In this document: piece after piece, positions 2,990-53,408 of the stretch | How positions within the stretch are numbered: the stretch's first letter is position 1 | Layout of the letters: each line of letters opens with the position of its first letter | Assembly (NCBI GenBank): GCA_038063555.1 | Contig: JBBTUX010000002.1 | Span: 6,806-70,805, forward strand | DNA from: Patescibacteria group bacterium | GTDB lineage: Bacteria > Patescibacteriota > Minisyncoccia > Phycocordibacterales > JAKFXT01 | DNA length: 64,000 nucleotides | Reading direction: 5' to 3' | Made by a program: the position numbers and the translations under genes | Notes under the pieces: generated by a model | Database searches by the model: none | Seen by the model: only the letters and a program-made list of their open reading frames with translations | What the model was told of the DNA's origin: nothing

Positions 2990-3287
2990 ATTTTTGAATT
3001 TTTGTCACTTTGCTTATGATTTAGATATTTTGATTTTGTTCTTTTCTTTTTTTAAATTAAAATAATAATGAGAGTAGATAATGAGTGCGCGGATAAATTC
3101 TTCGCAACATCGAAATCAGTAGAACACAGATCGGAATTTTTGCGTGATAAGTGCGTGAAAAGTGTGTCTGTGTTTTCTTTAAAAAAAGAAATCTACTTGG
3201 CGCATATACGTCTGGCATTATGATGCCGACTTAAATACAATGTATGGTTGCGACTATATGTGGTGGATTGCATGTGTATATGCGAAA

Positions 3288-3405
3288 CTCTGGACGGCGA
3301 TATTCATGTCCCGAACTTGGATTGGAATGACGGTGAGCGTAGTTTGAACAGGAACATCTGGGACAATGAGTGGGATGATAGGAATCGATTTGTTTGCCTC
3401 CGCAA
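3288..3405 (+). repeat. DGR template region (TR), 118 bp, adenine/AAY-rich, non-coding
   Basis: In the VR reading frame it carries 7 Asn (AAC/AAT) codons in about 39 codons. It lies 85 nt upstream of the RT. The ORF-track ORF 3248-3463 covers it and is probably not a real protein. Confidence 0.55.
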
Positions 3406-3469
3406 TTTAATTTCTTTCTCCGCCAGATATTTATTTTGGTGGAGTTTTCTTTTGACTCTCTAATTCCAA

Positions 3470-4183
3470 TTGTTTAATCAATTGGTTATGCCAGTAATTA
3501 GCAAAGCAAGTGTTAGAGACAGAGTTGTTCATAGGTTGGTTTATAACGCTCTTTATTATTACTTTGACTATAAATTTATTTATGATTCTTATAGTTGTCG
3601 AATTGGAAAAGGTACACACAAGGCACAGGCGAGATTCAGAAGTTTTGTTAATAAGGTTAGCAAAAATTATACGGCCTCCTGTTTTGTTTTAAAATTTGAT
3701 ATCAAAAAATGTTTTGAGAGTATTGATAAAAATATACTCAAAAATATACTTTCTTTTCATATTGAGGATAAAGGACTAAAAAGAATTATATTTTCTATAA
3801 TTGATAGTTTTGGAACGGGAATTCCTCTCGGGAATTTGACATCACAATTATTCTTGAATATTTATCTCCACGAGCTTGATTGGTATGTAAAACAATTTTG
3901 GGGGTGTAAATATTACCTGCGATATGCTGACGATATAATCATTATCTCCACCAACAAAGAGAAATTAGAAGAACTATATGCAAATTTAGAAATTTTTCTT
4001 AAAAACAAATTGAACCTCACTACTCACAAGAAAATCATTATTAGTATTTACTCGGGAATTGATATTTTGGGGTTGGTGTTTTTCCCGCAGTATCAACGCT
4101 TGCGACGCAGTACCGAAAGAAGAATAGAAAAAAGAAATAGCAAAATATTTAAACATCATCTATACCACTATTCCATGGAATAG
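3470..4183 (+). CDS. DGR-type reverse transcriptase (237 aa; apparently shortened at both the N- and C-terminus)
   Basis: It contains the RT motifs VRDRVVH (motif 1), CRIGKGTHKA (motif 2), FDIKKCFESID, the DGR-diagnostic GIPLGNLTSQLF motif and YADDIII (motif 5). Alignment from memory to Bordetella phage Brt starts at Brt motif 1 (the first roughly 55 aa are missing) and stops about 40 aa short. The last codons lie inside palindrome P3. Confidence 0.8.
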   Translation: MFNQLVMPVISKASVRDRVVHRLVYNALYYYFDYKFIYDSYSCRIGKGTHKAQARFRSFVNKVSKNYTASCFVLKFDIKKCFESIDKNILKNILSFHIEDKGLKRIIFSIIDSFGTGIPLGNLTSQLFLNIYLHELDWYVKQFWGCKYYLRYADDIIIISTNKEKLEELYANLEIFLKNKLNLTTHKKIIISIYSGIDILGLVFFPQYQRLRRSTERRIEKRNSKIFKHHLYHYSME

Positions 4184-11234: not shown

Positions 11235-12458
11235 ATGAAAAAAATATTAATTTTTTCTTTGGCTTATTTTCCAAAACATGTCGGAGGTGCAGAGGTTGCT
11301 ATTAAAGAAATTACTGAAAGAATAAATCCAAAAGACATAGAGTTTCATATGGTTACCCTTAGATTTGATTCCACTCTTCCAAAAGTTGAAAAAATAGCAA
11401 ATGTTTTGGTACACAGAATTGGTCTTACGACCAATAATCCTTCTACGGGCGACTTAAGAAGATTTCCACTCCATTTAAACAAATTATTTTTTCAATTTTT
11501 AGCCTTTTGGAAAGCACGATCACTCCATAGAGAATATAAATATGATGCTATTTGGGCTATGATGGTTCATTCTTGTGGAGTTCCGACTGCCATCTTCAAA
11601 ATAAATTATCCAAACGTAAAATATATTCTCACTTTGCAAGAAGGGGATCCCATTGAATATATAGAAAATAAAATGAAACCATTTTGGCCATTTTTTACTA
11701 GAGCTTTTACTAAAGCTGATATAATCCAAGTTATATCTACCTTTTTAGGAAAGTGGGCAAGAAACAGGGGGTTCAAAGGTCCTCTTGAAGTTATTCCAAA
11801 TGCAGTAAACGTGGCTCATTTTTCTCAAATATATTCAAACGAAGAATTAAATGATATAAAAAATAAACTTGGCAAAAAAGACGGAGAAGTTTTTATGGTG
11901 ACAACTTCTCGTTTAGTAAAAAAAAATGCATGTGACGATGTTATTAGAGCATTGTCTTATTTACCAAGTAATATTAAATTTGTGATTATGGGAACTGGTC
12001 CAGACGAGGGAATGCTTAAAAGTTTGATTAAGGAATTAAAAATTACAGAACGGATTGTTTTTCTAGGACAAGTAAACCACGAAGAAATGCCACTTTATTT
12101 AAAGGCTTGCGATATTTTTATTCGACCATCGCGATCTGAGGGAATGGGCAATTCTTTTGTTGAAGCTATGGTAGCAGAATTGCCTGTTATTGCAACACAA
12201 GAGGGCGGCATAGCAGATTTCTTGTTTGATAAAAGACGAAATCCAGACAGAGAAACAACGGGGTGGGCAGTGGATAAAGATTCTCCAGAGCAAATTGCTG
12301 AAGCGGTAAAAAATATTATTTCTAATACAGGTAAAGTTTCTAAAGTTGTTGCTAATGCTAAAAAAATGGCAATTGAAAAATACGACTGGAATATAATTGT
12401 AAAAAATATGAAAGAGAGAGTTTTCGATAGAGTTTTGGACACAGAAATTATCGAATAG
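11235..12458 (+). CDS. GT4-family glycosyltransferase
   Basis: It has a GT-B fold: an N-terminal GT4 domain and a C-terminal Glycos_transf_1-like region with the EG..NS.VEAM motif (RPSRSEGMGNSFVEAM). Confidence 0.7.
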   Translation: MKKILIFSLAYFPKHVGGAEVAIKEITERINPKDIEFHMVTLRFDSTLPKVEKIANVLVHRIGLTTNNPSTGDLRRFPLHLNKLFFQFLAFWKARSLHREYKYDAIWAMMVHSCGVPTAIFKINYPNVKYILTLQEGDPIEYIENKMKPFWPFFTRAFTKADIIQVISTFLGKWARNRGFKGPLEVIPNAVNVAHFSQIYSNEELNDIKNKLGKKDGEVFMVTTSRLVKKNACDDVIRALSYLPSNIKFVIMGTGPDEGMLKSLIKELKITERIVFLGQVNHEEMPLYLKACDIFIRPSRSEGMGNSFVEAMVAELPVIATQEGGIADFLFDKRRNPDRETTGWAVDKDSPEQIAEAVKNIISNTGKVSKVVANAKKMAIEKYDWNIIVKNMKERVFDRVLDTEIIE

Positions 12459-26453: not shown

Positions 26454-27617
26454 ATGAATTATTTATTGCGCATGCGAAATATCCTGCTGTTTATTCTCGC
26501 AATTTTCTCCATTGTTTTTTATGGGAATAGAAAAAAAATAAATAAGACGCCGAAGAAAATACTCATTATACAACTGGCGAAGTTGGGGGATATGGTTTGT
26601 ATGACTCCTGTTTTTCATGCGCTACGGCAGAATGTGCCTCAAACAAAAATATATGTAATGGGGGATGGAACAAATAAAGAATTACTAAAAGGCAATAATG
26701 ACATTGATGAATATTTAGTATTTCAACATGGGAGGTTGTTTTCTATGGTTAAGCAATTAAGGCGCGAAAAAATAAACGTTGCATGCATTCGTGGTACAGG
26801 GTTTGTTCCTCTTGTGGTAGCACTTCTTGCTGGTATACCCTTAATTATTACACCAAAAGTTACAAAAGGAAAGGCCCTTCAAACAAAAACCTACGAGTTG
26901 CTTCTTCCTTACGTGAAGACAGTTGATTTTAGATTTGGGGAATATATGCCACGCCAATTTTTACGATTGCTTGAACCGTTAGGTATAGTATCTTCCGACA
27001 CTAAAAAATATTTGGTATTTTCAGATACTGCACTTGAAAAAACAAACCAATTTTTAAAGCGTAATGGAATAGAATCGGAAAAATATCTTGTAGTAGGGAT
27101 ATCACCATCCGCAGGAAATAAAATAAAGGAATGGCCGGAAGAACGTTTCGCTGAAGTTGCTGATTATCTTATACAAAAACATAATGCGAAGGTGCTACTA
27201 ATTGGAGGACCACATGACGATCAAAAAGTGAAAAAGTTGATTAAAAATATTAAAAATATTGCAGGTGTTGTAAATACTCAAGGGGAATTTAATGTAGATG
27301 AGCTCAAGGCACTTGTCTCCAAGCTGGACCTGTTTATAAGCGTTGATACTGGCCCGATTTATATTGCGGAAGCATTTGGTGTACCCACAATTGATATCAT
27401 AGGACCAGTAGATGAAAAAGAGCAGCCCCCAATTTCAAATATTCACAGAATTGTTTATTGGAAGGACCGTAAAGCACCAGCAGTTCATATTTTGAATACG
27501 CGCATTTATGATGCTTATGAAGCCAGAAAACAGATAGAGTCAATTTCTGCTAAGGACGTTATCTCAACTTTTGAAGAATTAATCAGAGATTCAGAGTTCA
27601 GAAGGTTTGTGTGCTAA
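26454..27617 (+). CDS. GT9-family glycosyltransferase (heptosyltransferase-like)
   Basis: It has KILIIQLAKLGDMVCMTPVFHALRQ at the N-terminus and a GT-B C-terminal half with ...SVDTGPIYIAEAFGVPTI... Confidence 0.6.
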   Translation: MNYLLRMRNILLFILAIFSIVFYGNRKKINKTPKKILIIQLAKLGDMVCMTPVFHALRQNVPQTKIYVMGDGTNKELLKGNNDIDEYLVFQHGRLFSMVKQLRREKINVACIRGTGFVPLVVALLAGIPLIITPKVTKGKALQTKTYELLLPYVKTVDFRFGEYMPRQFLRLLEPLGIVSSDTKKYLVFSDTALEKTNQFLKRNGIESEKYLVVGISPSAGNKIKEWPEERFAEVADYLIQKHNAKVLLIGGPHDDQKVKKLIKNIKNIAGVVNTQGEFNVDELKALVSKLDLFISVDTGPIYIAEAFGVPTIDIIGPVDEKEQPPISNIHRIVYWKDRKAPAVHILNTRIYDAYEARKQIESISAKDVISTFEELIRDSEFRRFVC

Positions 27618-28704: not shown

Positions 28705-29409
28705 TTATCGTGTCTCTAACTCCTCAATTCTCGGTGGGCCACGCAGGATGCGCACGAGTTTGTATTGGAAGTTACTGCGATACAAACTCATTATTTGTTC
28801 TGCTACCCACTTGGGATCAAGGAGAGAGGATAAGTCGTCGCGGGGGTTACTTCTCCAGAACTCGGTGTTCATTCCGGAAGGTCCTACTACCAAGACTTTG
28901 CCAATACGCTCGTCAAGCGAGAGAGAGCTGGCAAGCATGGCGGTTCCCGCTTTGATTCCAGTGTAGACTGGTTCACGGAGACGGGGAATCCACTGCGAGG
29001 TAGAGGTGACAGCGATGAACCCGTTTAGCACCCCCTGCTTTCGCAGAATCCTTTGCATCATCATGGCGGGTGCCAGGAAGCCGACATTGGTCATTTTCTG
29101 GATACTTGAATCCCCGAGTTCGTCGATAGTTCCTTTTTCCTCGAATCCGGCGGCGTAAATAAGCAGGTCAATCGGACCAACTTTGCCGATTAGTGAATCT
29201 AAGTCGACAGAAAGCTCGTCGGCATTAGGGCCTATATAAAAGTTGAAGAATCGAACGTTTTTTTCCTGGGGATCGTTTCTGCCGGTAATGAAAACGGTAT
29301 CGCTTTCTTTGGCGAAAAAACGTGCCAAGGCAAGTCCTAATCCGGATGTTCCGCCGACAATTAATATTTTTTTCATGACAATTCCTCGGTGACTAACTAT
29401 TTCGCACAT
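28705..29409 (-). CDS. Short-chain dehydrogenase/reductase (SDR) family oxidoreductase
   Basis: It has MKKILIVGGTSGLGLALA, a TGxxxGxG Rossmann motif. Its GC content is much higher than the surrounding sequence. Confidence 0.65.
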   Translation of the reverse strand: MCEIVSHRGIVMKKILIVGGTSGLGLALARFFAKESDTVFITGRNDPQEKNVRFFNFYIGPNADELSVDLDSLIGKVGPIDLLIYAAGFEEKGTIDELGDSSIQKMTNVGFLAPAMMMQRILRKQGVLNGFIAVTSTSQWIPRLREPVYTGIKAGTAMLASSLSLDERIGKVLVVGPSGMNTEFWRSNPRDDLSSLLDPKWVAEQIMSLYRSNFQYKLVRILRGPPRIEELETR

Positions 29410-29498
29410 TAATACTAAAATTCTTCTTTGTCAAATTTTGTTTTTCAAAAAAATGTCGGAGAAGCGAGTGCGTCTCCGACATGTTGCTACGGCCAGGA

Positions 29499-30824
29499 TC
29501 ACAGGAAGTAATCCCCCCGATCAGCGACGGCCTCAAGTTCTTCCGGATTGATCCCGCTTTTGATGGCGTCTTCAATCCAGTCGTTGACTGGTTTGTAGAG
29601 GCAGGTTACTTCGCGGCACTCATGCTCTGCGTTGAAATGTCGCAGTATTGAGGTGGTGGCTTCTTGTGTTTTGGCCACGCTTCCGGTATCCGCATAAGCA
29701 TCTTTCCCGGCGATGAAGGCCTTTCCAACTCCGCGATGTGCTGGGCAGTTGTAAAGTCCGCGTGGAGAGAGAACCTGGCGCAAGGCCTGCATGTGGCAGG
29801 TGTTCGGTTGCTTGGTGAAATCTCGCCATGTGTCGCTTTCCAGGAGCCGTAGATTGGTACTCTCCACGATGTTGAATGTGGGGGTTTCCAGTTTTTTGGC
29901 TTCGTTGATTGCAATTCGGATGCGGGCGATTGTGCTCCTGTAATCCTCAATCGCCCCGGTGTCCATCACTTCGCCGCCCTCCGGAGAGCGCCGAAGAAAC
30001 GGCTTGGCGGAAAAATAGCTGAACCCCGAATCATGCGCCAATTTTGCCGCAGGAACTATCTCATCGATATTCGGCACAACTGACACCTTCTCTGCGCTTT
30101 CGGCTCCACGCCAGGTGACAATAAAGGAAAAACCGATTTGAAGCCCCGGGTTTTTTTCGCGAATACCCGGTACTCCGGCACAAATTTCCTCCAATGACAC
30201 ATTTTGCTTCGGTTGATGCATGGCTTGAAAGGTTTGGTCATACGCGGAGTCAAGCGAAAGGCGCACCCAGTCACCGGGAGTGAACAAATGTGCCACCTCG
30301 CGGATTTTCTCGTTGCGGGAACCGTTGCTGACGACCGCCACTTGAATGTTGCGCTCTTTTAGGAAGCGAACGGTGTCTCCAAATCGAGGGTAAAGAGTCG
30401 GTTCGCCCCCCCCGATTAGAATTACCGAACGCAGCCCCCGCTCAATCAGTTGCGAAAGAGAAGACAGCAGTTTTTCGTGGGCATACTTGACCGGACTGTT
30501 CAGAATGTCCCAGTCGATGCAATGTCCACACGCGTAATTGCAGGCGGTGGTCATGTCCAAGTTCATGGAAAGCGGTCCGAAGTCCACGGGCATTTCCGGC
30601 GGAGCGTTGCCTTTCAAGAGGGCATGGTTCACCGCTCTTTGCCACTTCACATACGAAATGACCCTGGGCAGAACCGACTCCTGCCGCAATTTGGCGGTGA
30701 AATCATGACGCTGGTCGAGCTTGGGGCTCGGTGGCACCGTTTTCCCCGAGTTTGAAGCAATCTCCAAGTTTGGCTGTAAACCGCGCCTGGATTTAATCTT
30801 TATTACTTGTCTGGTCAGGTTCAC
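29499..30824 (-). CDS. Radical SAM domain protein of unknown specificity, with extra C-terminal Cys residues
   Basis: It has CNYACGHC, a CxxxCxxC motif, at about aa 95 and a glycine-rich SAM motif ILIGGGEP. The C-terminus carries additional Cys (CHMQ, CPAHRG, CREVTC). It lies in a GC-rich island. Confidence 0.65.
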   Translation of the reverse strand: MNLTRQVIKIKSRRGLQPNLEIASNSGKTVPPSPKLDQRHDFTAKLRQESVLPRVISYVKWQRAVNHALLKGNAPPEMPVDFGPLSMNLDMTTACNYACGHCIDWDILNSPVKYAHEKLLSSLSQLIERGLRSVILIGGGEPTLYPRFGDTVRFLKERNIQVAVVSNGSRNEKIREVAHLFTPGDWVRLSLDSAYDQTFQAMHQPKQNVSLEEICAGVPGIREKNPGLQIGFSFIVTWRGAESAEKVSVVPNIDEIVPAAKLAHDSGFSYFSAKPFLRRSPEGGEVMDTGAIEDYRSTIARIRIAINEAKKLETPTFNIVESTNLRLLESDTWRDFTKQPNTCHMQALRQVLSPRGLYNCPAHRGVGKAFIAGKDAYADTGSVAKTQEATTSILRHFNAEHECREVTCLYKPVNDWIEDAIKSGINPEELEAVADRGDYFL

Positions 30825-42561: not shown

Positions 42562-42822
42562 ATGTTCTATACTTACATACTGAAAAGTAAAATGAATGGT
42601 AGATTATATACCGGGTACACTAATGATTTACGGAAACGTTTTAATCAACATAATGAAAAAAGATCAAAATATACAAAATACCGGGGGCCGTACAATCTCA
42701 TTTATTATGAAGCGTGCGTGGATGAAAATGACGCAAGGTCGAGAGAGTTATATCTTAAATCAGGTAGGGGTAAGCGTTATCTTAAATCAAGATTAAAACG
42801 TTTCCTATTTTGTACGGGATGA
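42562..42822 (+). CDS. GIY-YIG nuclease-superfamily small protein (UPF0213/YhbQ-like)
   Basis: It carries FYTYIL...GRLYTGYTNDLRKRFNQH, which are GIY-YIG motifs. Confidence 0.65.
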   Translation: MFYTYILKSKMNGRLYTGYTNDLRKRFNQHNEKRSKYTKYRGPYNLIYYEACVDENDARSRELYLKSGRGKRYLKSRLKRFLFCTG

Positions 42823-44081
42823 AGATTGTATTTCTACAAGATGATTTTCCACCACAAAGTTTTGGTGGAGCAGGGATTTCTACTTTTGAACTTGCACTCG
42901 GTATGAAGAATGCTGGTCATGATATTTTTGTTATTACCACCTGCAGGAAACAAGGCGATGCGGGTGAAAGTGATTATCAGGGTTTAAAGATTTTCAAAAT
43001 ATTAAGCAACTACCATCCGAGGTGGCGCGCGTATCTGAGTATTTATAACAGGCCTGTAATCAAAGAAGTGGAGAAAATACTGGAGAAAATAAAGCCAGAT
43101 ATTGTACATGCCAATAATATTCACTTCTATCTTTCATATTGCACATTGCAAGTGGCAAAGAAATACTCCAAAGCAGTGGTAATAACCCTAAGAGATGCCA
43201 TGTCTATTTGTTATGGGAAGTTAGAGACGAAACAGTATTTGGAGAATTTTAATTGTCGCACTACCTGGCGCGATCATATAAGCCAAGCGAGAAAGAGATG
43301 GAATCCTTTTCGCAACTTTTTTATTAAAAGATATCTTAAGTATGCAAGTAAAATATTTGCAATTAGCAAGTCGTTACAAAATGCTCTTTTCCAAAACGGT
43401 ATCAAAAATGTTGATGTTATATACAACGGAATTAATGTTCGCGAATGGAATGTTGAAGCAAATGCTGTTACACAATTTCAATCTAAATATGATTTGCATG
43501 CAAAAAAAGTTCTTCTCTTTAGCGGACGGCTCGGTGCATCAAAGGGCGGAGCGAAAGCTCTCGAAGCGCTAGTCATAATAGTTAGAGAGATACCTGACGT
43601 GGTGCTTTTGGTTGCTGGAAGTGTTGACGAGTACGCGCGTGTGATGAAAGAGTACGCAAGGAGGTTGAATGTAGAAAAAAACCTGATTTTTACGGGTTGG
43701 ATTGAAAGAGAGGAAATCAAAGTTGCTTATGCCGTTTCTGATATTGTGCTGATGCCATCCGTTTATCTTGACGCTTTTGGTAGAGTGAATATTGAAGCGA
43801 TGGCTTCGAGGAAACCGGTGGTCGGCACTTGCTACGGAGGAACTCCCGAAATTGTTGTTGATGGAGTTACAGGTTACATCGTGAATCCATGTTATCCAGA
43901 GAGAATAGCTGAAAAAATAATTGAGTTACTCAAAAATCCTAAAATGGCGGAGGAATTTGGTGATGCTGGATACGAAAGAGTAAAGACCCATTTCAACCTT
44001 GAAAGGAGTGTTGAGCAGCATCTTTCCCAATATGATATGTTACTTAATACGAGCCGTGTTAGTAGTAGACAAAAGACATAA
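42810..44081 (+). CDS. GT4-family glycosyltransferase
   Basis: It has a GT-B fold with ...PSVYLDAFGRVNIEAMASRKPVVGTCYGGTPEIV... Confidence 0.7.
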   Translation: MYGMKIVFLQDDFPPQSFGGAGISTFELALGMKNAGHDIFVITTCRKQGDAGESDYQGLKIFKILSNYHPRWRAYLSIYNRPVIKEVEKILEKIKPDIVHANNIHFYLSYCTLQVAKKYSKAVVITLRDAMSICYGKLETKQYLENFNCRTTWRDHISQARKRWNPFRNFFIKRYLKYASKIFAISKSLQNALFQNGIKNVDVIYNGINVREWNVEANAVTQFQSKYDLHAKKVLLFSGRLGASKGGAKALEALVIIVREIPDVVLLVAGSVDEYARVMKEYARRLNVEKNLIFTGWIEREEIKVAYAVSDIVLMPSVYLDAFGRVNIEAMASRKPVVGTCYGGTPEIVVDGVTGYIVNPCYPERIAEKIIELLKNPKMAEEFGDAGYERVKTHFNLERSVEQHLSQYDMLLNTSRVSSRQKT

Positions 44082-44093
44082 ATCTGGAAAAAT

Positions 44094-44915
44094 ATGCCAA
44101 AAAATAAACTTTTTTCTCGCGAGCACAGAAATGAAAATAAACTGGTGAAGGTTGGGAAAGTGGTAATTGGTGGACCGGAGTTTATTGTTATGGCTGGACC
44201 ATGTGCGGTTGAGAATCTAAAGCAAATACAGAAAATTGCCTTTAGCGTTAAAAGCTCCGGCGCCGAAGTTTTGCGAGGCGGGGCTTGGAAGCCAAGATCT
44301 TCCCCTTATAGTTTCCAAGGTTTGGAAACTGAAGGTCTAGAATATTTAAAAAAAGCAGCAGAAGAAAACAACCTCTTAATAGTAAGTGAGATAATGGATC
44401 ACCGTGATATTCCGCTTTTCTTGGAAAATGTGGACATTTTGCAAGTTGGAGCCAGAAATATGCACAATTTCACTCTTCTCAAAGAGCTAGGTAAAATTAA
44501 TAAACCAATCTTGTTAAAACGTGGCATGAGCGCGACTATAGATGAATTTTTACATGCGGCAGAATATATTCTCTCTGGAGGAAACGAAAACGTTATTCTT
44601 TGTGAACGTGGCATTCGTACTTTTGAAACGGCAACCAGGAATACTTTAGATATTTCGGCTATACCAATTGTTAAAAAACTTTCCCATTTACCAATAATAG
44701 TTGATCCAAGTCATGCTGCCGGGAAGAACAAAGAAATCATTCCCGCTCTGTGTAGGGCGGCTTTAGCCGCGGGTGCCGATGGTCTTTTGCTTGAAGTCCA
44801 TCATGACGCCGATAATGCGCTTTGCGATGGAGATCAGGCGCTTTCCGAAAAAGAATTTGCCGATCTTATGATTGATCTTAAAAAAGTTGCTCCAGTTTTT
44901 GGTAGAAAAATATGA
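44094..44915 (+). CDS. Class I-beta 3-deoxy-ulosonate-phosphate synthase (DAHP synthase / KDO8P synthase family); its motifs sit closer to DAHP synthase
   Basis: It has GPCAVEN, RGGAWKPRSSPYSFQGLETEGL, LQVGARNMHNF and GADGLLLEVHHDADNALCDGDQAL. Canonical KdsA has KANRSS and QIPAFLxRQTDL instead, while the motifs here match type I-beta DAHPS from memory. Confidence 0.6.
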   Translation: MPKNKLFSREHRNENKLVKVGKVVIGGPEFIVMAGPCAVENLKQIQKIAFSVKSSGAEVLRGGAWKPRSSPYSFQGLETEGLEYLKKAAEENNLLIVSEIMDHRDIPLFLENVDILQVGARNMHNFTLLKELGKINKPILLKRGMSATIDEFLHAAEYILSGGNENVILCERGIRTFETATRNTLDISAIPIVKKLSHLPIIVDPSHAAGKNKEIIPALCRAALAAGADGLLLEVHHDADNALCDGDQALSEKEFADLMIDLKKVAPVFGRKI

Positions 44916-44976
44916 CGCATATTAACAAATAAAAAAACGCACAGGCCGGTTTTTGGCCCATGCGGTCGTGTGGAAC

Positions 44977-45624
44977 TCAGCCCAGGGTTCTGTGTCGAGC
45001 AATAATGGGTTTCCATAGCCCTTTGACGTCAAGTAGCATCTGCAGGACTTCCCGCACAACGCCATAGCCACCTTTTGCTTTGGTGACATAGTCCACTTCG
45101 GCTCTTGCCTCCGGTGCTGCGTCTTGCGGAGCAGCAGAGAATCCCGCACGGCGAATGAGGGAAATATCCTGAATATCGTTCCCGATAAACAAGACTTCAT
45201 CCCACCCGATGTCAAACTCTTTCAGCAGTGCTTCAACTGCGGCGACCTTATCTTCGACGCCCTGTAGGCACCGAGCACCAAGATCTTCAGCTCGTTGTCG
45301 CACTGTTGGAGACTTGCGCCCGCTGATGAGAACAACAGGTATATCGTGTCTCAGGCATTCCTTGATAACAATGCCGTCGCCAGTAAAGAAGAAGTACCCC
45401 TCAATTCGGCCGTCGGCACCAGATGATAGTTGAAGGAACCTCTCGCTCGGCACGCCGTCGCCATTGCATGGGACGAGCTTTTGAGTAATCCCGGCTGTTT
45501 CAATGTTAAGTCCATCCGATGTTTTGGAAATATAAAACCTGTCATCGGTGTGGACGCCGTCTACGTCCGTTACCGCCATGCGCACTTTTTGAAGTGCGAC
45601 ATTATTGCTATTTCCATGCATCAT
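44977..45624 (-). CDS. kdsC: HAD-family 3-deoxy-ulosonate-8-phosphate phosphatase
   Basis: It has the HAD motif I VTDVDGV and a motif IV-like FIGNDIQD. It is GC-rich. Confidence 0.6.
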   Translation of the reverse strand: MMHGNSNNVALQKVRMAVTDVDGVHTDDRFYISKTSDGLNIETAGITQKLVPCNGDGVPSERFLQLSSGADGRIEGYFFFTGDGIVIKECLRHDIPVVLISGRKSPTVRQRAEDLGARCLQGVEDKVAAVEALLKEFDIGWDEVLFIGNDIQDISLIRRAGFSAAPQDAAPEARAEVDYVTKAKGGYGVVREVLQMLLDVKGLWKPIIARHRTLG

Positions 45625-46390
45625 GATCTCCTTTTTGTTGTCGTGCGACCATGATGGTGCGCACCTGTTCTAGTTCGTCAGGCATGTTCACGCCCAAATT
45701 TTTCCAATCGCCCTTAACGACACGTATACGGACGCCGTTTTCAAGAATTCGCATTTGCTCCACCCCCTCACGTAATTCAAGAGGAGTCCGGGACATTTGC
45801 AGAAATTCGTACAAAAATTCACGTCTAACTACCATAACTCCGATTACATGATAAAGGTCAACTGGAGAGTTGGTGCTATGCGCAAAGGGGACTGGGGCTC
45901 TAGAAAATGACAATACATTATTTTTTAAATCTGTCAAAACCTTGACGACACTTGGAGAGCGCCACATTTCTTCATCATGGATTTTGTCTGCAGCAATGGA
46001 CACCTGGAGCTCGGGGTCTTCCTGAAGTAGAGCCACACATTGATCTATTGCTTCGGCTGGGTAGAGAGGTTCGTCTCCCCAAATGATTGCAATAACATCA
46101 GGAGTGAATTCGGTAAATAATTTAGTCGCGGCGCCGGCGCGATCGCTTCCTGTGGGTAGCTCGCTTGGTGTCATGATGACCGGTACTCCTAAAGGTTTCA
46201 CTATATTTGCAATACGTTCGGAGTCAGTTGCAACCACCAGCGCATCCAAAAGATGCGCTTTCTTTGTACGATCTATTGTGTGTTGTATAAGGGGCTTGCC
46301 AGATATATCGGCGAGCATTTTTTCTGGGATTCGGGTAGAGCCTAGGCGGGCGGGGATTATCCCAAGAACTTTAAGGCGGGGGTTTTGCAT
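45608..46390 (-). CDS. kdsB: 3-deoxy-manno-octulosonate cytidylyltransferase (CMP-Kdo synthetase family)
   Basis: It has LGIIPARLGSTRIPEK and ...WGDEPL... It aligns with E. coli KdsB along its length, from memory. It is GC-rich. Confidence 0.65.
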   Translation of the reverse strand: MQNPRLKVLGIIPARLGSTRIPEKMLADISGKPLIQHTIDRTKKAHLLDALVVATDSERIANIVKPLGVPVIMTPSELPTGSDRAGAATKLFTEFTPDVIAIIWGDEPLYPAEAIDQCVALLQEDPELQVSIAADKIHDEEMWRSPSVVKVLTDLKNNVLSFSRAPVPFAHSTNSPVDLYHVIGVMVVRREFLYEFLQMSRTPLELREGVEQMRILENGVRIRVVKGDWKNLGVNMPDELEQVRTIMVARQQKGDHDAWK

Positions 46391-46492
46391 ATGTATGGAT
46401 ACTTGGAAATTGTATAGAAAGTTTCGTTGAACAGCAATGTTTATTATACATTCGTATGTGGTTCTATAAATAAATTTTTAAATAAATCAAAT

Positions 46493-46528
46493 AAAAAATG
46501 CATACACTCCGCGAGGAAAATGTATGCA
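46493..46528 (-). terminator. Rho-independent terminator downstream of the minus-strand glycosyltransferase gene
   Basis: The minus strand reads TGCATACATTTTCCTCGCGGAGTGTATGCA, a 9-bp stem, followed by TTTTTTATTT. Confidence 0.5.
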
Positions 46529-46559
46529 CGTGATGCTGTACTTAACTTAGTGATGCAGG

Positions 46560-47732
46560 TCAACTTCTTGGCTTGGAAGCGACTTCTTCCAGATAATCGC
46601 AGACCCGGCCGAGGGATTTCTGTGGAGGAATAAAGCGACTTTCAAGCTCTCGTCCCCACTCATCGTCCAATGTTCGAGAGAGCTCCGCAATGGCTTCCTC
46701 CCCGTCGCGTGCGCAAAGAGAACGCCCATCGGCTACGTCTCCCCAATAGGGCCATTTCTGGAGAAGTTCTTTTTCGAAATACTTCCGCCCCCGCCCGCCG
46801 AAATTCCGAATCACCACGTTTCCGAGGAGAACGGCTTTGAGACCTTCCACTGAAAGGCTTCCGGCAAAGACTGCGTCCGCCGCGATGTTTAGAACTTCAG
46901 AGGACGGCGCCCCATGGACTTTGCTCAAAACACGCAACGTCCGTGGTGCCCACTTTCGAATCCTCCCCATTTCGTTCTTGCAAAAATCGGGGTTATCGAA
47001 ACTTGTGTTGAGAGCTGGGTGAAGTCTGGGAATAAAAACGAGGGGGTGTATTTCCGAAACCTCTGTAACCGCTTTCAGAACCATCTCGCAATCTTCGGCG
47101 TAGAGGTCTCGAATGCCGTGGGACCACCAGAGCACAATCTTTTCCTCTTCTGATATCCCATTGTCTTTCCGGAATGTCAGCCGTATTTCCTCCCGTTGCG
47201 GGAGAAGCTCAAGAAGGCCGTCGAAGAGAGGTTGGCCGACGACTTTCACAGCGCGCGAATCCATGGAAGGATGCATTTTGCGAATGGCATCTGCATGTCC
47301 TTCGTTAATTGCACACCAGTTTCCATACCCCACTTCGCGCCACATCGGAAAGGCGTGATTGAAGTAATTGTCGGCCGGGAAGAACAGAGGGATCTTCATT
47401 GTGGAAACGACATCGGCAACTTCTCGGCAGAGATTTGGATTGGCTTGCACATCGAGACCAACCGAAATCGCGTCGAACTTGGAGTATGAGTAGAAATCCG
47501 ATGCCGAACGCGCCAAGAAAGGATTTCCGACACCTCCCTTGGCGAAGATGTTTGTTGCTTGCCCTCTGGAATCGGCCAGAAGTTGCACATTATGCCCCCG
47601 ACGAATCATTTCTCTTGCCAACGCCAAGTGGACGTTAGCGCTTCCTCCATCGGCGGAAACGAACAAGAATTTTTTCATTTGATGAACCAACCCCTTCTTT
47701 GGTTGTTGGAAAATCTGATGGCATTTAATCAT
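46560..47732 (-). CDS. Putative GT-B glycosyltransferase, possibly a capsule KpsS-like or Kdo transferase
   Basis: It is 390 aa, GC-rich and adjacent to kdsB. I verified no definitive motif; the functional guess rests on context and size only. Confidence 0.25.
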   Translation of the reverse strand: MIKCHQIFQQPKKGLVHQMKKFLFVSADGGSANVHLALAREMIRRGHNVQLLADSRGQATNIFAKGGVGNPFLARSASDFYSYSKFDAISVGLDVQANPNLCREVADVVSTMKIPLFFPADNYFNHAFPMWREVGYGNWCAINEGHADAIRKMHPSMDSRAVKVVGQPLFDGLLELLPQREEIRLTFRKDNGISEEEKIVLWWSHGIRDLYAEDCEMVLKAVTEVSEIHPLVFIPRLHPALNTSFDNPDFCKNEMGRIRKWAPRTLRVLSKVHGAPSSEVLNIAADAVFAGSLSVEGLKAVLLGNVVIRNFGGRGRKYFEKELLQKWPYWGDVADGRSLCARDGEEAIAELSRTLDDEWGRELESRFIPPQKSLGRVCDYLEEVASKPRS

Positions 47733-47762: not shown

Positions 47763-49568
47763 GTGACATTGACCTCTCCTCGTTTGTTGGTAATCTTACT
47801 ATACATGAAAGAGAAGAAAGTTTTAGTGGTTTTTGGAGAACAACTTCCACCGAAATGGTTGCAATTAAGACATCAATATGACGTCGTAATTACTAGCGAA
47901 AAATTACGACAAAATGTAGAGAAACTCGGCTTTAAATGGACGGATATTGATGGATTAATTGAACCAGGAAGTATTTATGAGGCAAGCACCTTTGCCGAGG
48001 AACTTTCTCACTTGAAATTTTCTGACGGGTCTCGGATTGCCAAGTCATTTCTTTATAAAGGATACGAATTATGGTGGACACATTATGACATGTTGTTTTT
48101 ATACTTTTGTTTACCATATACGAGGTATAGGAAATTACTTGAATATGTAAGAAGTTTTCAGGGTGTTTATTTTTATCGTCCTCCGAATAAAAGTTTGTTT
48201 TCTTGCTATCTAGAAGCATACGGCAGCAAAATGATTGTACTTCAAGAGCCAAGACTCAAAAGCCCATCCTTTCTTCCTTTTGGTGTCTTTCTACAAATTG
48301 TAATTACTCTTTTGTGTTTGCCGATTCTTATATTAAGAAGGTATCATTCCATGATATTTATTGGCGATAAATTTGAAAAAGATAAAGATTATGATTCTAG
48401 GGTGAAGTTTATATATGAAGAGTTGAGACAAAAGAAAATTCCTTTCGTTGAGTTCATTCGCGGTTTGGAATCTTGGAAAACCGTATTAGAGCATGCGTTT
48501 ACAAGAAAGCGTCCAGTCGTTTATTCTGAAGCGGTAGCTTTTGTCGGTCGTTTTATAAGTATTCTCACAGGCGGACATTCTATAGCTAGAAAAAGATTTG
48601 GCTCTCACATTTTTTCTTCTGAAACAGATAGGGAAGCGCGATTTAAATTTTTTGTGGCAACCCAATATCTTTTAGGCGCATACGATGATATTTGGGCGAT
48701 ACGGATTATGAAATGGATTTTGCGTGTGATAGGTGTTAGGGCGGCATTTATTTCGGCGGCTTGTGAACGTAATTTTCACACTGTATTGGGTTGTAAATTA
48801 AATGTCATACCAATAGTTGGTATTTTGCACGGATTCGCTTCAAAGAATTACAATGTATATGATTTTATGCCGGGGTTTGATGGAGAAAAAAGTTTATCCG
48901 TTGATAAGTATGGTCTTTGGAGCGAGTGGTGGAGAGGATATTATATAAAAAATAGTAAAACCTATCGTCCGGAACAGCTTTTTGTTTCTGGTCCAATGAG
49001 ACCCTTGCAAAAACCATTAATTGATTCTGTTTTGAAAACACTTGTTAAACGACAAAAGATAAATGTTCTTTTGGTTTCTGAAATAGTCGCTGTCCCCTCG
49101 GAAGTCATGCCGTATCTGGATGCTCTTTTTGAAGATTCTAATTTTTCTGTTTATATAAAATTTCGTCAAAATAAAGACGCTTTTGAAGAATGGCTAAAGA
49201 TTAATCGTCCTGATGTTTTAGCCAAGCTTGGTAAAGACAGAACTTTGAAAGGGACGATGAATGAAGCTATTGAACTGTGCGATGTTGTAGTCGGTTCCCA
49301 GAGCACTGGAGTTATAGAGGCGACACTTCACGGCAAACCCTTTGTTTTTTTCAACACCAAGAAGTGGGGCGACTATTTTGATTTAAAATCACTTGATTCA
49401 AAATATAATTTCTTTGCAGAAAATCCTAAAGAGTTAGTTAATTACATAAGAGAGAGCGAAAAAATTCCCAAAGAAGTGTTAAAAGATTTTTGTGAAAGAT
49501 TTTTCGGAGACCCACGTAAAAATGGTAGCAAATGGGCTGTCGAAGAATTGGAAAAATTTTCCAAATAG
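47763..49568 (+). CDS. Putative GT-B polymer-forming transferase (TagF/CDP-glycerol glycerophosphotransferase-like or capsule-synthesis family)
   Basis: Its C-terminal ...CDVVVGSQSTGVIEATLHGKPFVFF... resembles GT-B donor-binding segments. The assignment is low-confidence. Confidence 0.25.
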   Translation: MTLTSPRLLVILLYMKEKKVLVVFGEQLPPKWLQLRHQYDVVITSEKLRQNVEKLGFKWTDIDGLIEPGSIYEASTFAEELSHLKFSDGSRIAKSFLYKGYELWWTHYDMLFLYFCLPYTRYRKLLEYVRSFQGVYFYRPPNKSLFSCYLEAYGSKMIVLQEPRLKSPSFLPFGVFLQIVITLLCLPILILRRYHSMIFIGDKFEKDKDYDSRVKFIYEELRQKKIPFVEFIRGLESWKTVLEHAFTRKRPVVYSEAVAFVGRFISILTGGHSIARKRFGSHIFSSETDREARFKFFVATQYLLGAYDDIWAIRIMKWILRVIGVRAAFISAACERNFHTVLGCKLNVIPIVGILHGFASKNYNVYDFMPGFDGEKSLSVDKYGLWSEWWRGYYIKNSKTYRPEQLFVSGPMRPLQKPLIDSVLKTLVKRQKINVLLVSEIVAVPSEVMPYLDALFEDSNFSVYIKFRQNKDAFEEWLKINRPDVLAKLGKDRTLKGTMNEAIELCDVVVGSQSTGVIEATLHGKPFVFFNTKKWGDYFDLKSLDSKYNFFAENPKELVNYIRESEKIPKEVLKDFCERFFGDPRKNGSKWAVEELEKFSK

Positions 49569-49579
49569 ATTCACTAAAG

Positions 49580-50836
49580 TCAACTATTCTTTCGCCACAT
49601 AGCTATGTTGATGAGCATGCCGATGAAAGACATAATGACAAAAGCCGATACTAATCCCATTATTCCACCTTGTATTCCAAGGACTAAATAAAGAATAATT
49701 TTAAGAATATTTTGAATTAAGCTGTTTGTAAAAATAACCCTAGACAATTTTTGAGAAACCAAAAGCAAGCTGACGTAGCGGTTGGGGATGGCGAATACAA
49801 AGCTAACTGCCAATATTTGTGAATAAGTTACGGCGTCTATATATTGTGGAAGCAAGTATTTGAATAAATATGGAGCAACCAATATATAGCTAATAAAACA
49901 CACGAGCCCCACCGCGATACCTTGAAAAGTTCTCAAATAGAAAGTTTCATTTATTTCTCGAGGTGTCTTTGTGGCAAATTTCGGAAAACCTAAACCGACC
50001 CAGTTTTTTATTAAATAAGTTGCTCTGTCCGGAATGGCGATTGCGAGTGAGTATAGTGCGAGCTGGGCTACTCCATAGAAGTGAGCCAGAATAATCTTGT
50101 CTATTTGCGAGGCAACTGGACCGATAAACCCAATGAAGGTTAGCTCCCGGCCATATTTCAAGGTTTCTTCGGTCGGTGTTTTGGGTGGCTTGAATGTGTA
50201 TAAAGTGAACAAATAAAAAAATAAAGTGGTGGCGAAGGTCGTCGCGGCATAGGTGATAATTAACCAGATGATTTCCTTGGTTAAGAGCAATGTGGCCAGC
50301 ATTCCCAATCCGTATACAAAAGTGGAAACGATACTTGAAATACTTGCCAATTTGAATTCTTTTTTGCCTTCAAGATAAGCTCCGTATGTATTAAAAGCTA
50401 AAGTGGCTGGGACAAATATTCCTAAAATAAGAAATGACATCGCGAATAGCGAATCGTCTTGCATAAAATAATAACCGCTAAGCGCCCAAAAAGCGGAGAG
50501 CATTAGTATGTTCCACCTGAGCTGATATCTGACGGATGTTTGAAGCGCTCCCTCTTGTCCTGCTGCTACCGCTCTTGCAACGGCGCCATTCATTCCGGTA
50601 AGCGAGAAAACATTCAATATGGCGGCCAAAGAAAGAATATATCTATAGAGACCATATGTTTCTTTTGGTAACAGATTGGCAAAAGCAATTACTAGTAAGA
50701 GCGATAAAACGTTTGATGCTACTTGCCCGAATGTTATCCAGAAACTTCCCTTGGCGACATATACCATATCAATCTTTAAAAAGCGCTCGCTGAAACGAAG
50801 CGCTTCAAGGGACTTTTGTTTTAGGCCGGCAATCAT
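49580..50836 (-). CDS. Oligosaccharide flippase (Wzx / MOP superfamily)
   Basis: It is a roughly 418-aa polytopic membrane protein with about 12-14 TM helices and a Wzx-like organisation. Confidence 0.55.
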   Translation of the reverse strand: MIAGLKQKSLEALRFSERFLKIDMVYVAKGSFWITFGQVASNVLSLLLVIAFANLLPKETYGLYRYILSLAAILNVFSLTGMNGAVARAVAAGQEGALQTSVRYQLRWNILMLSAFWALSGYYFMQDDSLFAMSFLILGIFVPATLAFNTYGAYLEGKKEFKLASISSIVSTFVYGLGMLATLLLTKEIIWLIITYAATTFATTLFFYLFTLYTFKPPKTPTEETLKYGRELTFIGFIGPVASQIDKIILAHFYGVAQLALYSLAIAIPDRATYLIKNWVGLGFPKFATKTPREINETFYLRTFQGIAVGLVCFISYILVAPYLFKYLLPQYIDAVTYSQILAVSFVFAIPNRYVSLLLVSQKLSRVIFTNSLIQNILKIILYLVLGIQGGIMGLVSAFVIMSFIGMLINIAMWRKNS

Positions 50837-51050: not shown

Positions 51051-53408
51051 ATGAATAACGTCCTCCGGTATACAATTTTACTCGGTTTATTTTCAATACC
51101 GTTTATTCCTCTCATTGTTTCTAGTTCAATGTTTTTTCCGTTTATAACTGGGAAAAATTTTACTTTCCGAATCATAGTAGAAATTATCTTTGCTCTATGG
51201 CTCATTCTTTCTCTAAGAGAAGCTCTATATAGACCTAAGTTCTCTGGCATTTTAGCCGCTTTCGCTGTTTTTGTGGGAATCGTTGCTATCGCAGACTTAA
51301 ATAGCGAATATGCCTTTAAAAGTCTTTGGAGCAATTATGAACGTATGGAGGGTTTGGTAACTTTGGTTCACTTGCTCGCATATTTTGTCGTTCTTGGTTC
51401 AATGTTTATAAAACGTTCTACTTGGGATCATTTCTTTAACTTAATGCTTGTGGTGTCCTCTGGTCTTTCCACTTATGGACTTTTTCAATTGGCAGGGTTT
51501 CTCATTATAAATCAAGGAGGCATTAGAGTAGATGGAACTTTAGGTAATGCCACCTATTTTGCAATTTATCTTGTCTTTCACTTCTTTTTGGCTTTGATGT
51601 TGGCAATTAGGCAGAAAGGTAAAGATTGGGATGCGATTTCGCGCGCCGTAATTACCGCTTCTGCTATTTTTGTTCCCTTGATAATGTTTGGTTTTTTGCC
51701 GGCAAACGCCAGCATAAAAGAAGGTAGGGAAATTTTCGCTTGGATTATACCTATTATAAGTTTAATCACAGTTGGGCTTTCTTTTCTTTCTCGTCAATAT
51801 CTTTATTTATTCCTTGGAGCCATTTATTCTCTTGTTCTTTATTACACGGCAACTCGTGGCGCCATCTTGGGATTAATTGGGGGGGTTTTGCTCGCCTCGC
51901 TTCTCGTTGCTTTGTTTGAAAAAGAAGAAAAGAATTTGAAGAAAATTTCTTGGGGAGTAATTGGCGCCGTTTTCATACTAATAGTTGGCTTTTTCTTTAT
52001 TCGTAACACTGAATTTGTAAAAACAAGTCCAGTTTTGAATCGTTTTGCCACTATTTCCATAAACGAAACCAAGACCCAGGCTCGCGCCTATGTTTGGCCA
52101 ATGGCCATAGAAGGATTTAAGGAAAGGCCAATTTTAGGATGGGGGCAAGAAAGTTTTAATTATGTTTTTAACAAACATTATAATCCGGCAATGTTTAACC
52201 ACGAGCCGTGGTTTGATAGAACGCATAATGTTTTTCTAGATTGGCTTATAGCGAGTGGCATCTTGGGACTTTTGGGGTATTTGTCTTTATATGGCTTTGG
52301 TCTTTACGCTTTGTGGAAAAAAAGTGACATGACATTTGCGGAAAAGGCAGTATTAATAGGACTTTTTTCCGCCTATGTTTTCCACAATTTCTTTGTCTTT
52401 GATAATTTGGTTAGCTACTTGCTCTTTGTCATATTTCTCGCCTTTCTTCATTTTGATACGGCCAAGGATTTCCCCGAAAGAGTATCTCTTCCTTTCAGAT
52501 CGTTCACCAATTTGGGCAACATTGGTTTTTCAATGGTCAGCATTATTGTGATCGCCACCACTGTTTGGGGAATATATGCGATAAATGGTAAGGCAATATC
52601 GGCAAACACCACTTTAATTAATGCTATTAACGGTGATAACAAATTGAGCGTAACCGATAGATTGAAAACTTTTCAAAAAGCGATTGATTATGGAAGTTTT
52701 GGTAATCAAGAAATTCGTGAGCAACTTTTCCAGTCTATGAATAGTGTTTCCCAGGTGGATTCGGTTTCTTCTCAAGACAAGGAGGCGTTTTATCAATACA
52801 CTAAGTCCCAATATGAGGAAATGATTAAAGAAGCGCCGAATGACGTAAGGCATCATATGTTTTTTGGCTCTTTGTTAAGCAGTCATCGCGACTACCAAGC
52901 TGGGCTAAATGAACTTTTAATAGCGCAGAAACTTTCGCCTAAAAAACAAACCATCCTTTTTGAGATTGCAAGATTACGTTTAATTGTTGGCGATAGTGCG
53001 GGCGCCATTAATATCTTAAAAGATACATTGGCTTTGGCGCCGAATAATACAGAAGCTCGTATTAATTTGGCAACAGCCGCCATATATTCAGGGCAAAACG
53101 AATTAGCCAATCAAGTTCTTTTGGAGGGATTTAACACAGTGGCTTATCCTCATGAGCAGCTTTTGCGCGCTTATTATGATACTAAACAATTTAATCAAGT
53201 TCTTGCCATATGGATTAGTAGAGCCAACGCTGAACCAAGTTCTCGAAATTATGCTGGGGTTGCCGCTTCTTATTTGCAACTTGGAAGAAGAATTGATGAC
53301 AGAATAGCTTTAGAAAAAGCGCGAGATCTGGAACTTAATCCAAGTGCTAAATCTCAATATCAAAAATTTATAGATGATTTGGTGGCAGGGAAAAATATTT
53401 TGAAGTAA
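51051..53408 (+). CDS. O-antigen ligase/polymerase (Wzy_C-like) membrane domain fused to C-terminal TPR repeats
   Basis: The N-terminal roughly 480 aa are polytopic, with a Wzy/WaaL-type large periplasmic loop (...YVWPMAIEGFKERPILGWGQESF...HNVFLDWL...). The C-terminal roughly 250 aa hold TPR-like repeats. Confidence 0.55.
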   Translation: MNNVLRYTILLGLFSIPFIPLIVSSSMFFPFITGKNFTFRIIVEIIFALWLILSLREALYRPKFSGILAAFAVFVGIVAIADLNSEYAFKSLWSNYERMEGLVTLVHLLAYFVVLGSMFIKRSTWDHFFNLMLVVSSGLSTYGLFQLAGFLIINQGGIRVDGTLGNATYFAIYLVFHFFLALMLAIRQKGKDWDAISRAVITASAIFVPLIMFGFLPANASIKEGREIFAWIIPIISLITVGLSFLSRQYLYLFLGAIYSLVLYYTATRGAILGLIGGVLLASLLVALFEKEEKNLKKISWGVIGAVFILIVGFFFIRNTEFVKTSPVLNRFATISINETKTQARAYVWPMAIEGFKERPILGWGQESFNYVFNKHYNPAMFNHEPWFDRTHNVFLDWLIASGILGLLGYLSLYGFGLYALWKKSDMTFAEKAVLIGLFSAYVFHNFFVFDNLVSYLLFVIFLAFLHFDTAKDFPERVSLPFRSFTNLGNIGFSMVSIIVIATTVWGIYAINGKAISANTTLINAINGDNKLSVTDRLKTFQKAIDYGSFGNQEIREQLFQSMNSVSQVDSVSSQDKEAFYQYTKSQYEEMIKEAPNDVRHHMFFGSLLSSHRDYQAGLNELLIAQKLSPKKQTILFEIARLRLIVGDSAGAINILKDTLALAPNNTEARINLATAAIYSGQNELANQVLLEGFNTVAYPHEQLLRAYYDTKQFNQVLAIWISRANAEPSSRNYAGVAASYLQLGRRIDDRIALEKARDLELNPSAKSQYQKFIDDLVAGKNILK

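Follow-up and report, generated by a model that had tools for sequence, protein, structure and literature searches.

A DAHP synthase-type aldolase linked to KdsC- and KdsB-like genes in Patescibacteria and its probable role in a CMP-ulosonate route to a surface glycan

This report concerns a 64,000-nucleotide stretch (the window) of a 202.5-kb contig from a Patescibacteria metagenome-assembled genome recovered from Hainich groundwater (GenBank assembly GCA_038063555.1, contig JBBTUX010000002.1, positions 6,806 to 70,805), and within it an aldolase gene (44094..44915, plus strand) that lies next to genes for a KdsC-like phosphatase and a KdsB-like cytidylyltransferase. By every measure applied, the aldolase is a class I-beta synthase of the 7-phosphate of 3-deoxy-D-arabino-heptulosonate (DAHP, also written DAH7P), and the sequence evidence makes it likely that an enzyme of this class feeds a KdsC/KdsB-type route to a sugar activated with cytidine monophosphate (a CMP-ulosonate) for a surface glycan. 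The full pathway set out below, in which the C7 sugar 3-deoxy-D-arabino-heptulosonate (DAH) would be activated to CMP-DAH and incorporated into the glycan, is given a probability of roughly one half. No publication describing a CMP-ulosonate module with a DAHP synthase-type aldolase was found in a literature search.

Class of the aldolase

The 273 residues encoded by the aldolase gene amount to a bare catalytic barrel, and its class was assigned from profile searches, structures in the PDB and sequence motifs. The translated open reading frame (ORF) contains KPRSSPYSFQG and QVGARNMHNF, and it is missing KANRSS and QLPAFLARQTDL, both of which are present in the Escherichia coli KdsA used for comparison. 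The original prediction had read these motifs as those of a DAHP synthase and not of a synthase for the 8-phosphate of 3-deoxy-D-manno-octulosonate (KDO8P), and the profiles and structures agree. In NCBIfam the aldolase scores 382.9 bits against TIGR01361 (cut-off 267.75) and 424.8 bits against NF006421 (cut-off 335), and Pfam DAHP_synth_1 gives 252 bits, whereas the KDO8P synthase model TIGR01362 gives 103.3 bits against a cut-off of 314. The top PDB match is the Thermotoga maritima DAHP synthase at about 300 bits, and the DAHP synthase structures of T. maritima, Pyrococcus furiosus and Aeropyrum pernix span 282 to 302 bits, compared with only 80 bits for the best KDO8P synthase structure. 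Phylogenetic placement had been suggested as a check, and in a neighbor-joining tree with six KdsA sequences as outgroup the aldolase and eight other linked aldolases (described below) fall inside the class I-beta DAHP synthases rather than in the KDO8P synthase clade, with a long internal branch separating them from KdsA.

The catalytic features lead to the same assignment. Metal ligands C37, H207, E234 and D245 align with C102, H272, E298 and D309 of the T. maritima enzyme, the motifs KPRSSP, GARN, LKRG, ERGIRT and DPSH are all intact, and K66 opens a segment that conforms to the KPR(S/T)SP pattern of DAHP synthases; at that position KPRSS stands where KdsA has KANRS. The beta7-alpha7 loop is short and DAHPS-like, unlike that of KdsA, and the metal-binding histidine is followed by HAAGKNKE, the counterpart of HALQCRDPFGAASGGRR in E. 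coli KdsA. An identity as KdsA was considered and rejected on the TIGR01362 score, the missing KANRS, the short loop and the tree. The NeuB model TIGR03569 gives 29 bits, and the enzyme is not of the NeuB type; a partial match to the NCBIfam BagF/FevY model reaches 308 bits against a cut-off of 700.

Regulated DAHP synthases align to the aldolase only from about their residue 69 onward, and neither profiles nor alignments place a ferredoxin-like or chorismate-mutase regulatory domain in it. Type I-beta DAH7P synthases of the 'unadorned' kind are unregulated (PMC6435475), and the lack of an N-terminal regulatory domain therefore suggests that the present enzyme is unregulated in the same way. 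Ordinary regulated DAHP synthases of other phyla share 63-66% identity with it, no substitution arguing for an altered substrate was found in the alignment with DAHP synthases, and the database annotation of the gene is 3-deoxy-7-phosphoheptulonate synthase.

Linkage with KdsB- and KdsC-like genes

Genomes in GTDB were scanned with an alignment of KdsB-like proteins, and all loci (here numbered L001 and upward) were surveyed by tblastn with 10-kb flanks. At 9 of 13 distinct loci a Patescibacterial-type KdsB has a DAHPS-type aldolase (46-66% identity) no more than 10 kb away, whereas none of 73 Gram-negative KdsB loci has one (Fisher p = 1.6e-9, to be taken as indicative); seven of the latter carry a KdsA-type gene instead. 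This linkage, conserved in about 10 non-redundant Patescibacterial loci, is not chance, and it supports the proposal in the original prediction that an enzyme of the DAHPS class was recruited to a KdsC/KdsB-type ulosonic-acid module for a surface glycan.

The arrangement of the genes varies among these loci. Two of the closest short DAHP synthase matches to the aldolase are on other Patescibacterial contigs, and both contigs carry a co-directional operon. Loci L001-L004 share the order GT9 glycosyltransferase, DAHP synthase, 496-aa protein, KdsB-like, KdsC-like, methyltransferase, Wzy_C, MurB and SecA; in L005 the DAHP synthase is followed by a 641-aa membrane protein and then by the KdsB-like and KdsC-like genes; and in L010-L013 and L015 it is immediately upstream, as DAHPS-KdsB-KdsC. 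The DAHPS-type module is likewise present in L008 and L103. Linked aldolases from L008, L010 and L015 also score above the TIGR01361 cut-off, and the linkage recurs among loci whose aldolases are only about 63% identical. The KdsB-like and KdsC-like proteins of the window are nearest (54-62% identity) to the operon-encoded copies.

The phosphatase and the cytidylyltransferase

The KdsC-like phosphatase, of the haloacid dehalogenase (HAD) superfamily (44977..45624, minus strand, 215 aa), and the KdsB-like cytidylyltransferase (45608..46390, minus strand, 260 aa) overlap by 17 nucleotides, and the ORFs bear out the adjacency claimed for them originally. The phosphatase keeps HAD motifs I-IV and scores 102.2 bits against TIGR01670 (the YrbI family), below the cut-off of 106.95; the model for phosphatases of Kdn 9-phosphate (Kdn being a nonulosonic acid) also matches, at 98 bits. 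The site directly after HAD motif I is the usual place of cap insertions, and KdsC is normally capless. The window phosphatase does not have the capless C0-type architecture: an insertion of about 35-40 residues directly follows its motif I (DVDGVHT), is shared with L010-L013 and L094, and in this subgroup bears a conserved C-x-x-DG. Short forms without the insertion occur in L001, L005, L008 and L103, and those of L001 and L005 pass TIGR01670 (147.6 bits).

The cytidylyltransferase passes the subfamily model NF003952 (236 bits, cut-off 193) and falls narrowly short of the equivalog TIGR00466 (146.2 against 155.2), a model on which the KdsB of L001 scores 164 bits, above the cut-off, and the Patescibacterial KdsB proteins linked to KpsF and KdsA score 208-214. 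The PseF model gives 55 bits against 206, and the protein is KdsB-like rather than NeuA/PseF-like. It belongs to a large Patescibacterial group (here KdsB2) of more than 100 clusters at 44-81% identity. Residues R10, R15, K19 and D100 of E. coli KdsB are kept, and Q98 and D235 are replaced by tryptophan and asparagine. In an alignment of 32 KdsB2 sequences the asparagine is invariant and the tryptophan (W104) nearly so (at least 90%), whereas the KdsB copies linked to KpsF/KdsA in Patescibacteria retain both Q98 and D235. D235 of E. coli KdsB is the second ligand of Mg-A and is equivalent to D219 of the Aquifex aeolicus enzyme (PMC3149649). These active-site changes and the insertion in the phosphatase are, as read from the alignments, compatible with a sugar other than 3-deoxy-D-manno-octulosonate (Kdo).

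A family of about 320-338 residues without a Pfam domain also stands beside KdsB2 in seven loci (L104 8782-9798, L130 6380-7381, L008 7000-7953, L103, L095, L094 and L126). Its members are 57-83% identical, and it is absent from the window.

The GT-B protein and the canonical Kdo module

In the neighborhood of the module lies a gene for a GT-B-fold protein, u601 (47763..49568, plus strand; the deposited start at 47805 gives 587 aa), in which no Pfam domain was found. Its AlphaFold2 model (mean per-residue confidence, pLDDT, 89) has a GT-B fold with WaaA and TagF/TarL among the matches, and its sequence weakly matches the model of the nonulosonic acid (NulO) transferase BFO_1060, which belongs to the pseudaminic/legionaminic acid (Pse/Leg) transferase family of Tannerella forsythia (PMC5420450). 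The 496-aa protein of the L001 operon is a remote homologue of u601 (hhalign, 96%). The family is widespread in Patescibacteria beside CMP-ulosonic-acid genes, and u601 is the candidate transferase for the activated sugar.

With the u601 family as the anchor of a metagenome scan, 93 Patescibacterial loci were tabulated. Two alternative modules were found beside the same GT-B family: one canonical, with KpsF (254-267 bits, TIGR00393), KdsA (338-358, TIGR01362) and KdsB (208-214, TIGR00466), and one with a DAHPS-type aldolase, KdsB2 and a KdsC-like phosphatase. KpsF, present at eight loci, occurs at 0 of the 11 DAHPS-type loci (about 10 non-redundant; p = 0.019 among 32 loci), and a KdsC-like gene is found at 10 of those 11 as opposed to 0 of 10 KpsF/KdsA loci (p = 3e-5). 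At many of the remaining u601 loci the cytidylyltransferases are more distant (29-40% identity), which suggests that proteins of this family keep company with more than one kind of CMP-sugar synthetase.

The canonical module bears directly on one part of the original prediction, that a CMP-Kdo-type pathway would be unexpected in a monoderm organism of the candidate phyla radiation (CPR). That expectation is tempered by the KpsF-KdsA-KdsB modules of other Patescibacteria, and also by an annotated operon of kdsA, a SIS-domain gene and kdsB on the linear plasmid NZ_CP108746 of Streptomyces sp. NBC_00963 (L177, 6545-8720), where it stands beside P450 and terpene synthase genes.

Two further loci containing members of the GT-B family were observed. 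In L142 (8750-14368) the canonical Kdo module includes a 987-aa fusion of the GT-B protein with a GT4 domain, and KdsA-KdsB is followed by a fructose-6-phosphate aldolase/transaldolase-like protein fused to CBS domains. In L014 a very divergent DAHP_synth_1-like ORF (11403-12452, minus strand, 349 aa, with a sub-threshold Pfam score of 23 bits) with the segments GLKSRTS, FDPSH and IEVG adjoins KdsB2-KdsC and a GT-B gene, which suggests rapid evolution of the aldolase in some lineages.

Searches for isomerase and shikimate genes

No homologue of the arabinose-5-phosphate (A5P) isomerases KdsD/KpsF was found in the window, in the 11 DAHPS-type loci or, by Pfam annotation, in the 10 kb past the right end of the window. 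A search for the remainder of the shikimate pathway had been proposed as a check, and it returned no shikimate gene: tblastn with E. coli AroB, AroK, AroA, AroC, AroE and AroD yielded no match with E <= 0.01 in the window and 92 Patescibacterial loci (1.26 Mb), and Pfam gave none in the window or the 10 kb past its right end. No other KdsA- or NeuB-type synthase was found within the window. The region past the right end (L178, 11343-16412) carries genes for a phosphoenolpyruvate (PEP) synthase/pyruvate phosphate dikinase-like protein, a 2-hydroxyacid dehydrogenase and enolase, which puts PEP-generating central metabolism nearby.

Gene neighborhood

From about 9.7 to 53 kb the window is a single large surface-glycan region (about 40 kb) with many GT4 and two GT2 glycosyltransferases, one GT9, sugar epimerases and dehydratases, methyltransferases, AsnB, an initiating sugar transferase, Wzx and Wzy_C/TPR, followed by MurB and SecA. 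The GT9 (heptosyltransferase-family) gene (26454..27617, plus strand; Pfam Glyco_transf_9, 88 bits) has a 42% identical counterpart in L001, located directly upstream of the DAHPS-type gene there. A GT4 gene (42810..44081, plus strand; Pfam Glycos_transf_1 and Glyco_transf_4) ends 12 nucleotides before the aldolase start codon, and the two are probably in the same transcription unit. On the other side the aldolase is convergent with the KdsC-like gene across a gap of 61 nucleotides, within which a terminator-like hairpin (10 pairs, of which 7 are G-C) with a run of T after it lies just past the KdsC-like stop (44938..44964, minus strand). A sigma-70-like promoter match (10/12) is found upstream of the KdsB-like gene (46443..46470, minus strand), and a further terminator-like hairpin (46498-46529) separates it from the preceding 390-aa ORF; all three elements are consensus matches only.

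The 390-aa ORF (46560..47732, minus strand) has no Pfam or NCBIfam match and only faint GT-B/MurG-like signals, the PDB profile search returning MurG at E = 0.047. Its family is very small, with 46 representatives (E <= 1e-3) in 1.84 billion proteins, and members are mostly about 330-410 aa, which makes Met19 (near 47678) the likely true start. Beyond u601 lie a Wzx-type flippase (49580..50836, minus strand; Pfam Polysacc_synt) and a Wzy_C (O-antigen ligase/polymerase-like) protein with TPR repeats (51051..53408, plus strand), next to which are MurB and SecA. The order Wzy_C-MurB-SecA after the module recurs in L001 and L007, and L008 has Wzy_C and SecA with no MurB.

With a GC content of 0.47-0.52, the minus-strand genes between 44977 and 47732 stand above the median of the window, 0.37, and the robust z-score for GC at third codon positions (GC3) is 3.2 for the KdsC-like gene, 1.8 for the KdsB-like gene and 3.8 for the 390-aa ORF. 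The aldolase (0.0), u601 (-0.2) and the flanking genes look native. The GC-rich island originally described around KdsC and KdsB is thus real, and the idea of a composite assembled from native and acquired parts fits as well, with the aldolase and u601 native and the KdsC-like gene and 390-aa ORF foreign by GC3.

Several features of the window lie outside the module. A second GC3-outlier island (28705-30824, minus strand), made up of a short-chain dehydrogenase and a radical-SAM gene (z of 3.6 and 4.9) within the plus-strand glycan cluster, looks like another acquired cassette. An 86-aa GIY-YIG nuclease-domain ORF (42562-42822, plus strand) lies between a Gfo/Idh/MocA oxidoreductase and the GT4 gene, whose start it overlaps. 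Just upstream of the glycan cluster (6495-9729) are a TrwB/TraG-like coupling-protein ATPase and a protein that looks secreted and has lamin-tail and PKD domains. At 974-4183 an RVT_1 reverse-transcriptase ORF (3470-4183, 65 bits) comes after an ORF of 671 aa that has a raised GC content (0.43) and matches nothing in Pfam, and together these may be a retroelement, or else a diversity-generating or retron-like unit.

Discussion

The pathway proposed here would begin with a DAHP synthase taken out of aromatic amino-acid synthesis, which would be the first of three enzymes leading to an activated 3-deoxy-ulosonic acid. The unregulated barrel would condense PEP with erythrose-4-phosphate (E4P) to DAH7P, the KdsC-like phosphatase would release free DAH, and the diverged KdsB2 cytidylyltransferase would convert DAH to CMP-DAH. 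The sugar would then be moved onto a lipid-linked glycan by u601, possibly also by the 390-aa ORF, and the glycan flipped by Wzx and polymerized or ligated by Wzy_C. We infer from sequence the use of E4P rather than A5P, as well as the enzymatic activities, the identity of the sugar and the assignment of the transferase. Tentatively, and at a little under even odds, Patescibacteria would then make and display an undescribed C7 ulosonic acid, DAH, by way of a new nucleotide sugar, CMP-DAH; the same tentative reading includes its origin, in which an unregulated shikimate DAHP synthase was paired with diverged KdsC and KdsB in parallel to the canonical Kdo module of sister lineages.

A number of points weigh against this pathway. 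We know of no report of DAH as a constituent of a glycan. The unchanged, DAHPS-like active site fits the use of E4P, but it fits an ordinary housekeeping enzyme equally well. KpsF and shikimate genes were absent from what was covered, flanks of up to 10 kb and about 75 kb of the host genome, and either could lie elsewhere. KdsB2-KdsC loci in which no aldolase lies within 10 kb (L006, L007, L009, L104 and L130) indicate that genes of the pathway can be unlinked, which weakens any argument from the lack of KpsF in the cluster. The loci are also kin to one another (L008 and L126 are near-duplicates) and were sampled by anchoring on KdsB and GT-B, and for this reason the p-values are only indicative.

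The most serious competitor, which is nonetheless unlikely, keeps the module and its role in the glycan but has the barrel condense PEP with A5P made elsewhere or with another pentose phosphate, as a non-orthologous replacement of KdsA that would yield CMP-Kdo or a Kdo epimer. There is reason to consider it in that the partners are nearest to KdsC and KdsB, by the NF003952 score in the window and by the KdsB and KdsC of L001, which pass TIGR00466 and TIGR01670, and in that the same GT-B family adjoins canonical Kdo modules. Heptosyltransferases of the GT9 family use Kdo as an acceptor in lipopolysaccharide, and a GT9 gene stands beside the module in L001. Substrate ambiguity has moreover been reported for the unadorned I-beta DAHP synthase of P. 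furiosus (Schofield et al. 2005, by its title as cited in PMC6435475), and this leaves room for use of A5P by the aldolase. However, the 11 DAHPS-type loci are without an A5P isomerase even though the canonical Patescibacterial modules have KpsF in the cluster, KPR(S/T)SP and a short beta7-alpha7 loop are kept in the aldolase and KANRS is missing from it, and KdsB2 differs from the KpsF-linked KdsB at the positions of E. coli Q98 and D235. It might alternatively be supposed that the KdsB/KdsC island was acquired laterally as a cassette and works independently of the aldolase, the ulosonic acid coming from, for example, an unlinked synthase or being scavenged from a host, in which case the convergent adjacency would be meaningless. 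The GC3 contrast between a native-looking aldolase and the outlying KdsC-like gene and 390-aa ORF, the opposite strands with a terminator-like hairpin between aldolase and KdsC-like gene, and the several KdsB2-KdsC loci without an aldolase in range are all in keeping with this supposition. It is made improbable by the DAHPS-type gene being co-directional with and adjacent to KdsB-KdsC in L001-L005, L010-L013 and L015, by the similarity of the window KdsB and KdsC to precisely those operon copies, and by the lack of another KdsA- or NeuB-type synthase in the window.

An ordinary aroF/aroG-type DAHP synthase of the shikimate pathway, placed in a glycan cluster by coincidence, would account for the annotation, the 63-66% identity to canonical regulated enzymes of other phyla and the unchanged active site. 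Patescibacteria typically lack amino-acid biosynthesis, though, and the window, its adjacent 10 kb and the 1.26 Mb of related loci hold no shikimate gene, the feedback-regulatory domain is lacking, and the linkage to KdsB/KdsC persists across loci with aldolases only about 63% identical; this explanation is very improbable. Because the operons recur, an ordinary aroG or a coincidental cassette neighbor is much less likely. The least probable explanation, and a highly doubtful one, is that DAH7P feeds a product other than a glycan, as do the DAHP synthase paralogues PhzC and BagF/FevY of secondary metabolism. Dedicated unregulated paralogues of that kind are known (PMC6435475), and the aldolase has its partial match to BagF/FevY; yet the surroundings of the aldolase are glycosyltransferases, Wzx and Wzy, with none of the cyclase, aminotransferase or further tailoring genes that such pathways have, and the enzymes that constantly accompany it are a sugar-phosphate phosphatase and a cytidylyltransferase.

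The divergence of the sister enzymes DAHP synthase and KDO8P synthase toward E4P and A5P has long been studied, and in these loci the DAHPS branch seems to fill the role that physiologically belongs to the KDO8PS branch. If DAH is the product, it would be a new member of the ulosonic-acid sugars with a new CMP-sugar, and it would explain in functional terms why 'orphan' DAHP synthase genes are annotated in Patescibacteria that do not synthesize aromatic amino acids. It would also be a distinctive acidic sugar at the surface of episymbiotic, ultrasmall bacteria, where it could mediate attachment to the host and serve metabolic labelling. If the product is Kdo instead, the locus would represent a clean non-orthologous displacement within one enzyme superfamily. 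In either case the 'shikimate pathway' annotation of these genes would mislead metabolic reconstructions of the CPR. Kdo-type genes as such are unsurprising in Patescibacteria or monoderms, and it is confirmation of a C7 sugar that would make the system considerably more interesting.

Comparison with known systems

As predicted from sequence, the window system works like the Gram-negative CMP-Kdo pathway (KdsD/KpsF, KdsA, KdsC and KdsB), in that an aldol condensation with PEP would be followed by HAD dephosphorylation, activation with cytidine triphosphate and transfer by a glycosyltransferase, and its phosphatase and cytidylyltransferase are homologous to KdsC and KdsB. It falls outside that pathway at the synthase, which is a class I-beta DAHP synthase and not KdsA, and at the isomerase, which is not found in the cluster; it departs in part at KdsB, with tryptophan and asparagine at E. 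coli Q98 and D235, and at KdsC, with the insertion after motif I. The host is moreover a Patescibacterium, and the predicted product would enter a Wzx/Wzy glycan instead of lipid A.

The unadorned type I-beta DAH7P synthases of P. furiosus and A. pernix share with the aldolase the same motifs and metal ligands and a (beta/alpha)8 barrel, about 260-275 residues long, that bears no regulatory domain, and PDB entries 1zco and 1vs1 match it at 294 and 282 bits. Those enzymes serve the shikimate pathway, whereas the one described here is found in a glycan operon, is linked to KdsB and KdsC and has no shikimate genes nearby. The pathways for Kdn and other nonulosonic acids likewise cluster a synthase, a KdsC-family phosphatase and a cytidylyltransferase with a dedicated transferase, but the window synthase is not of their NeuB type and its cytidylyltransferase resembles KdsB rather than NeuA/PseF. 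Finally, PhzC and BagF/FevY exemplify a DAHP synthase copy free of feedback control and committed to a specialized product, which is the role predicted for the aldolase. Those paralogues still feed shikimate-derived aromatics, whereas the partners in the window are a sugar-phosphate phosphatase and a CMP-transferase, and these partners imply that an acyclic or pyranose ulosonic acid would itself be the end product.

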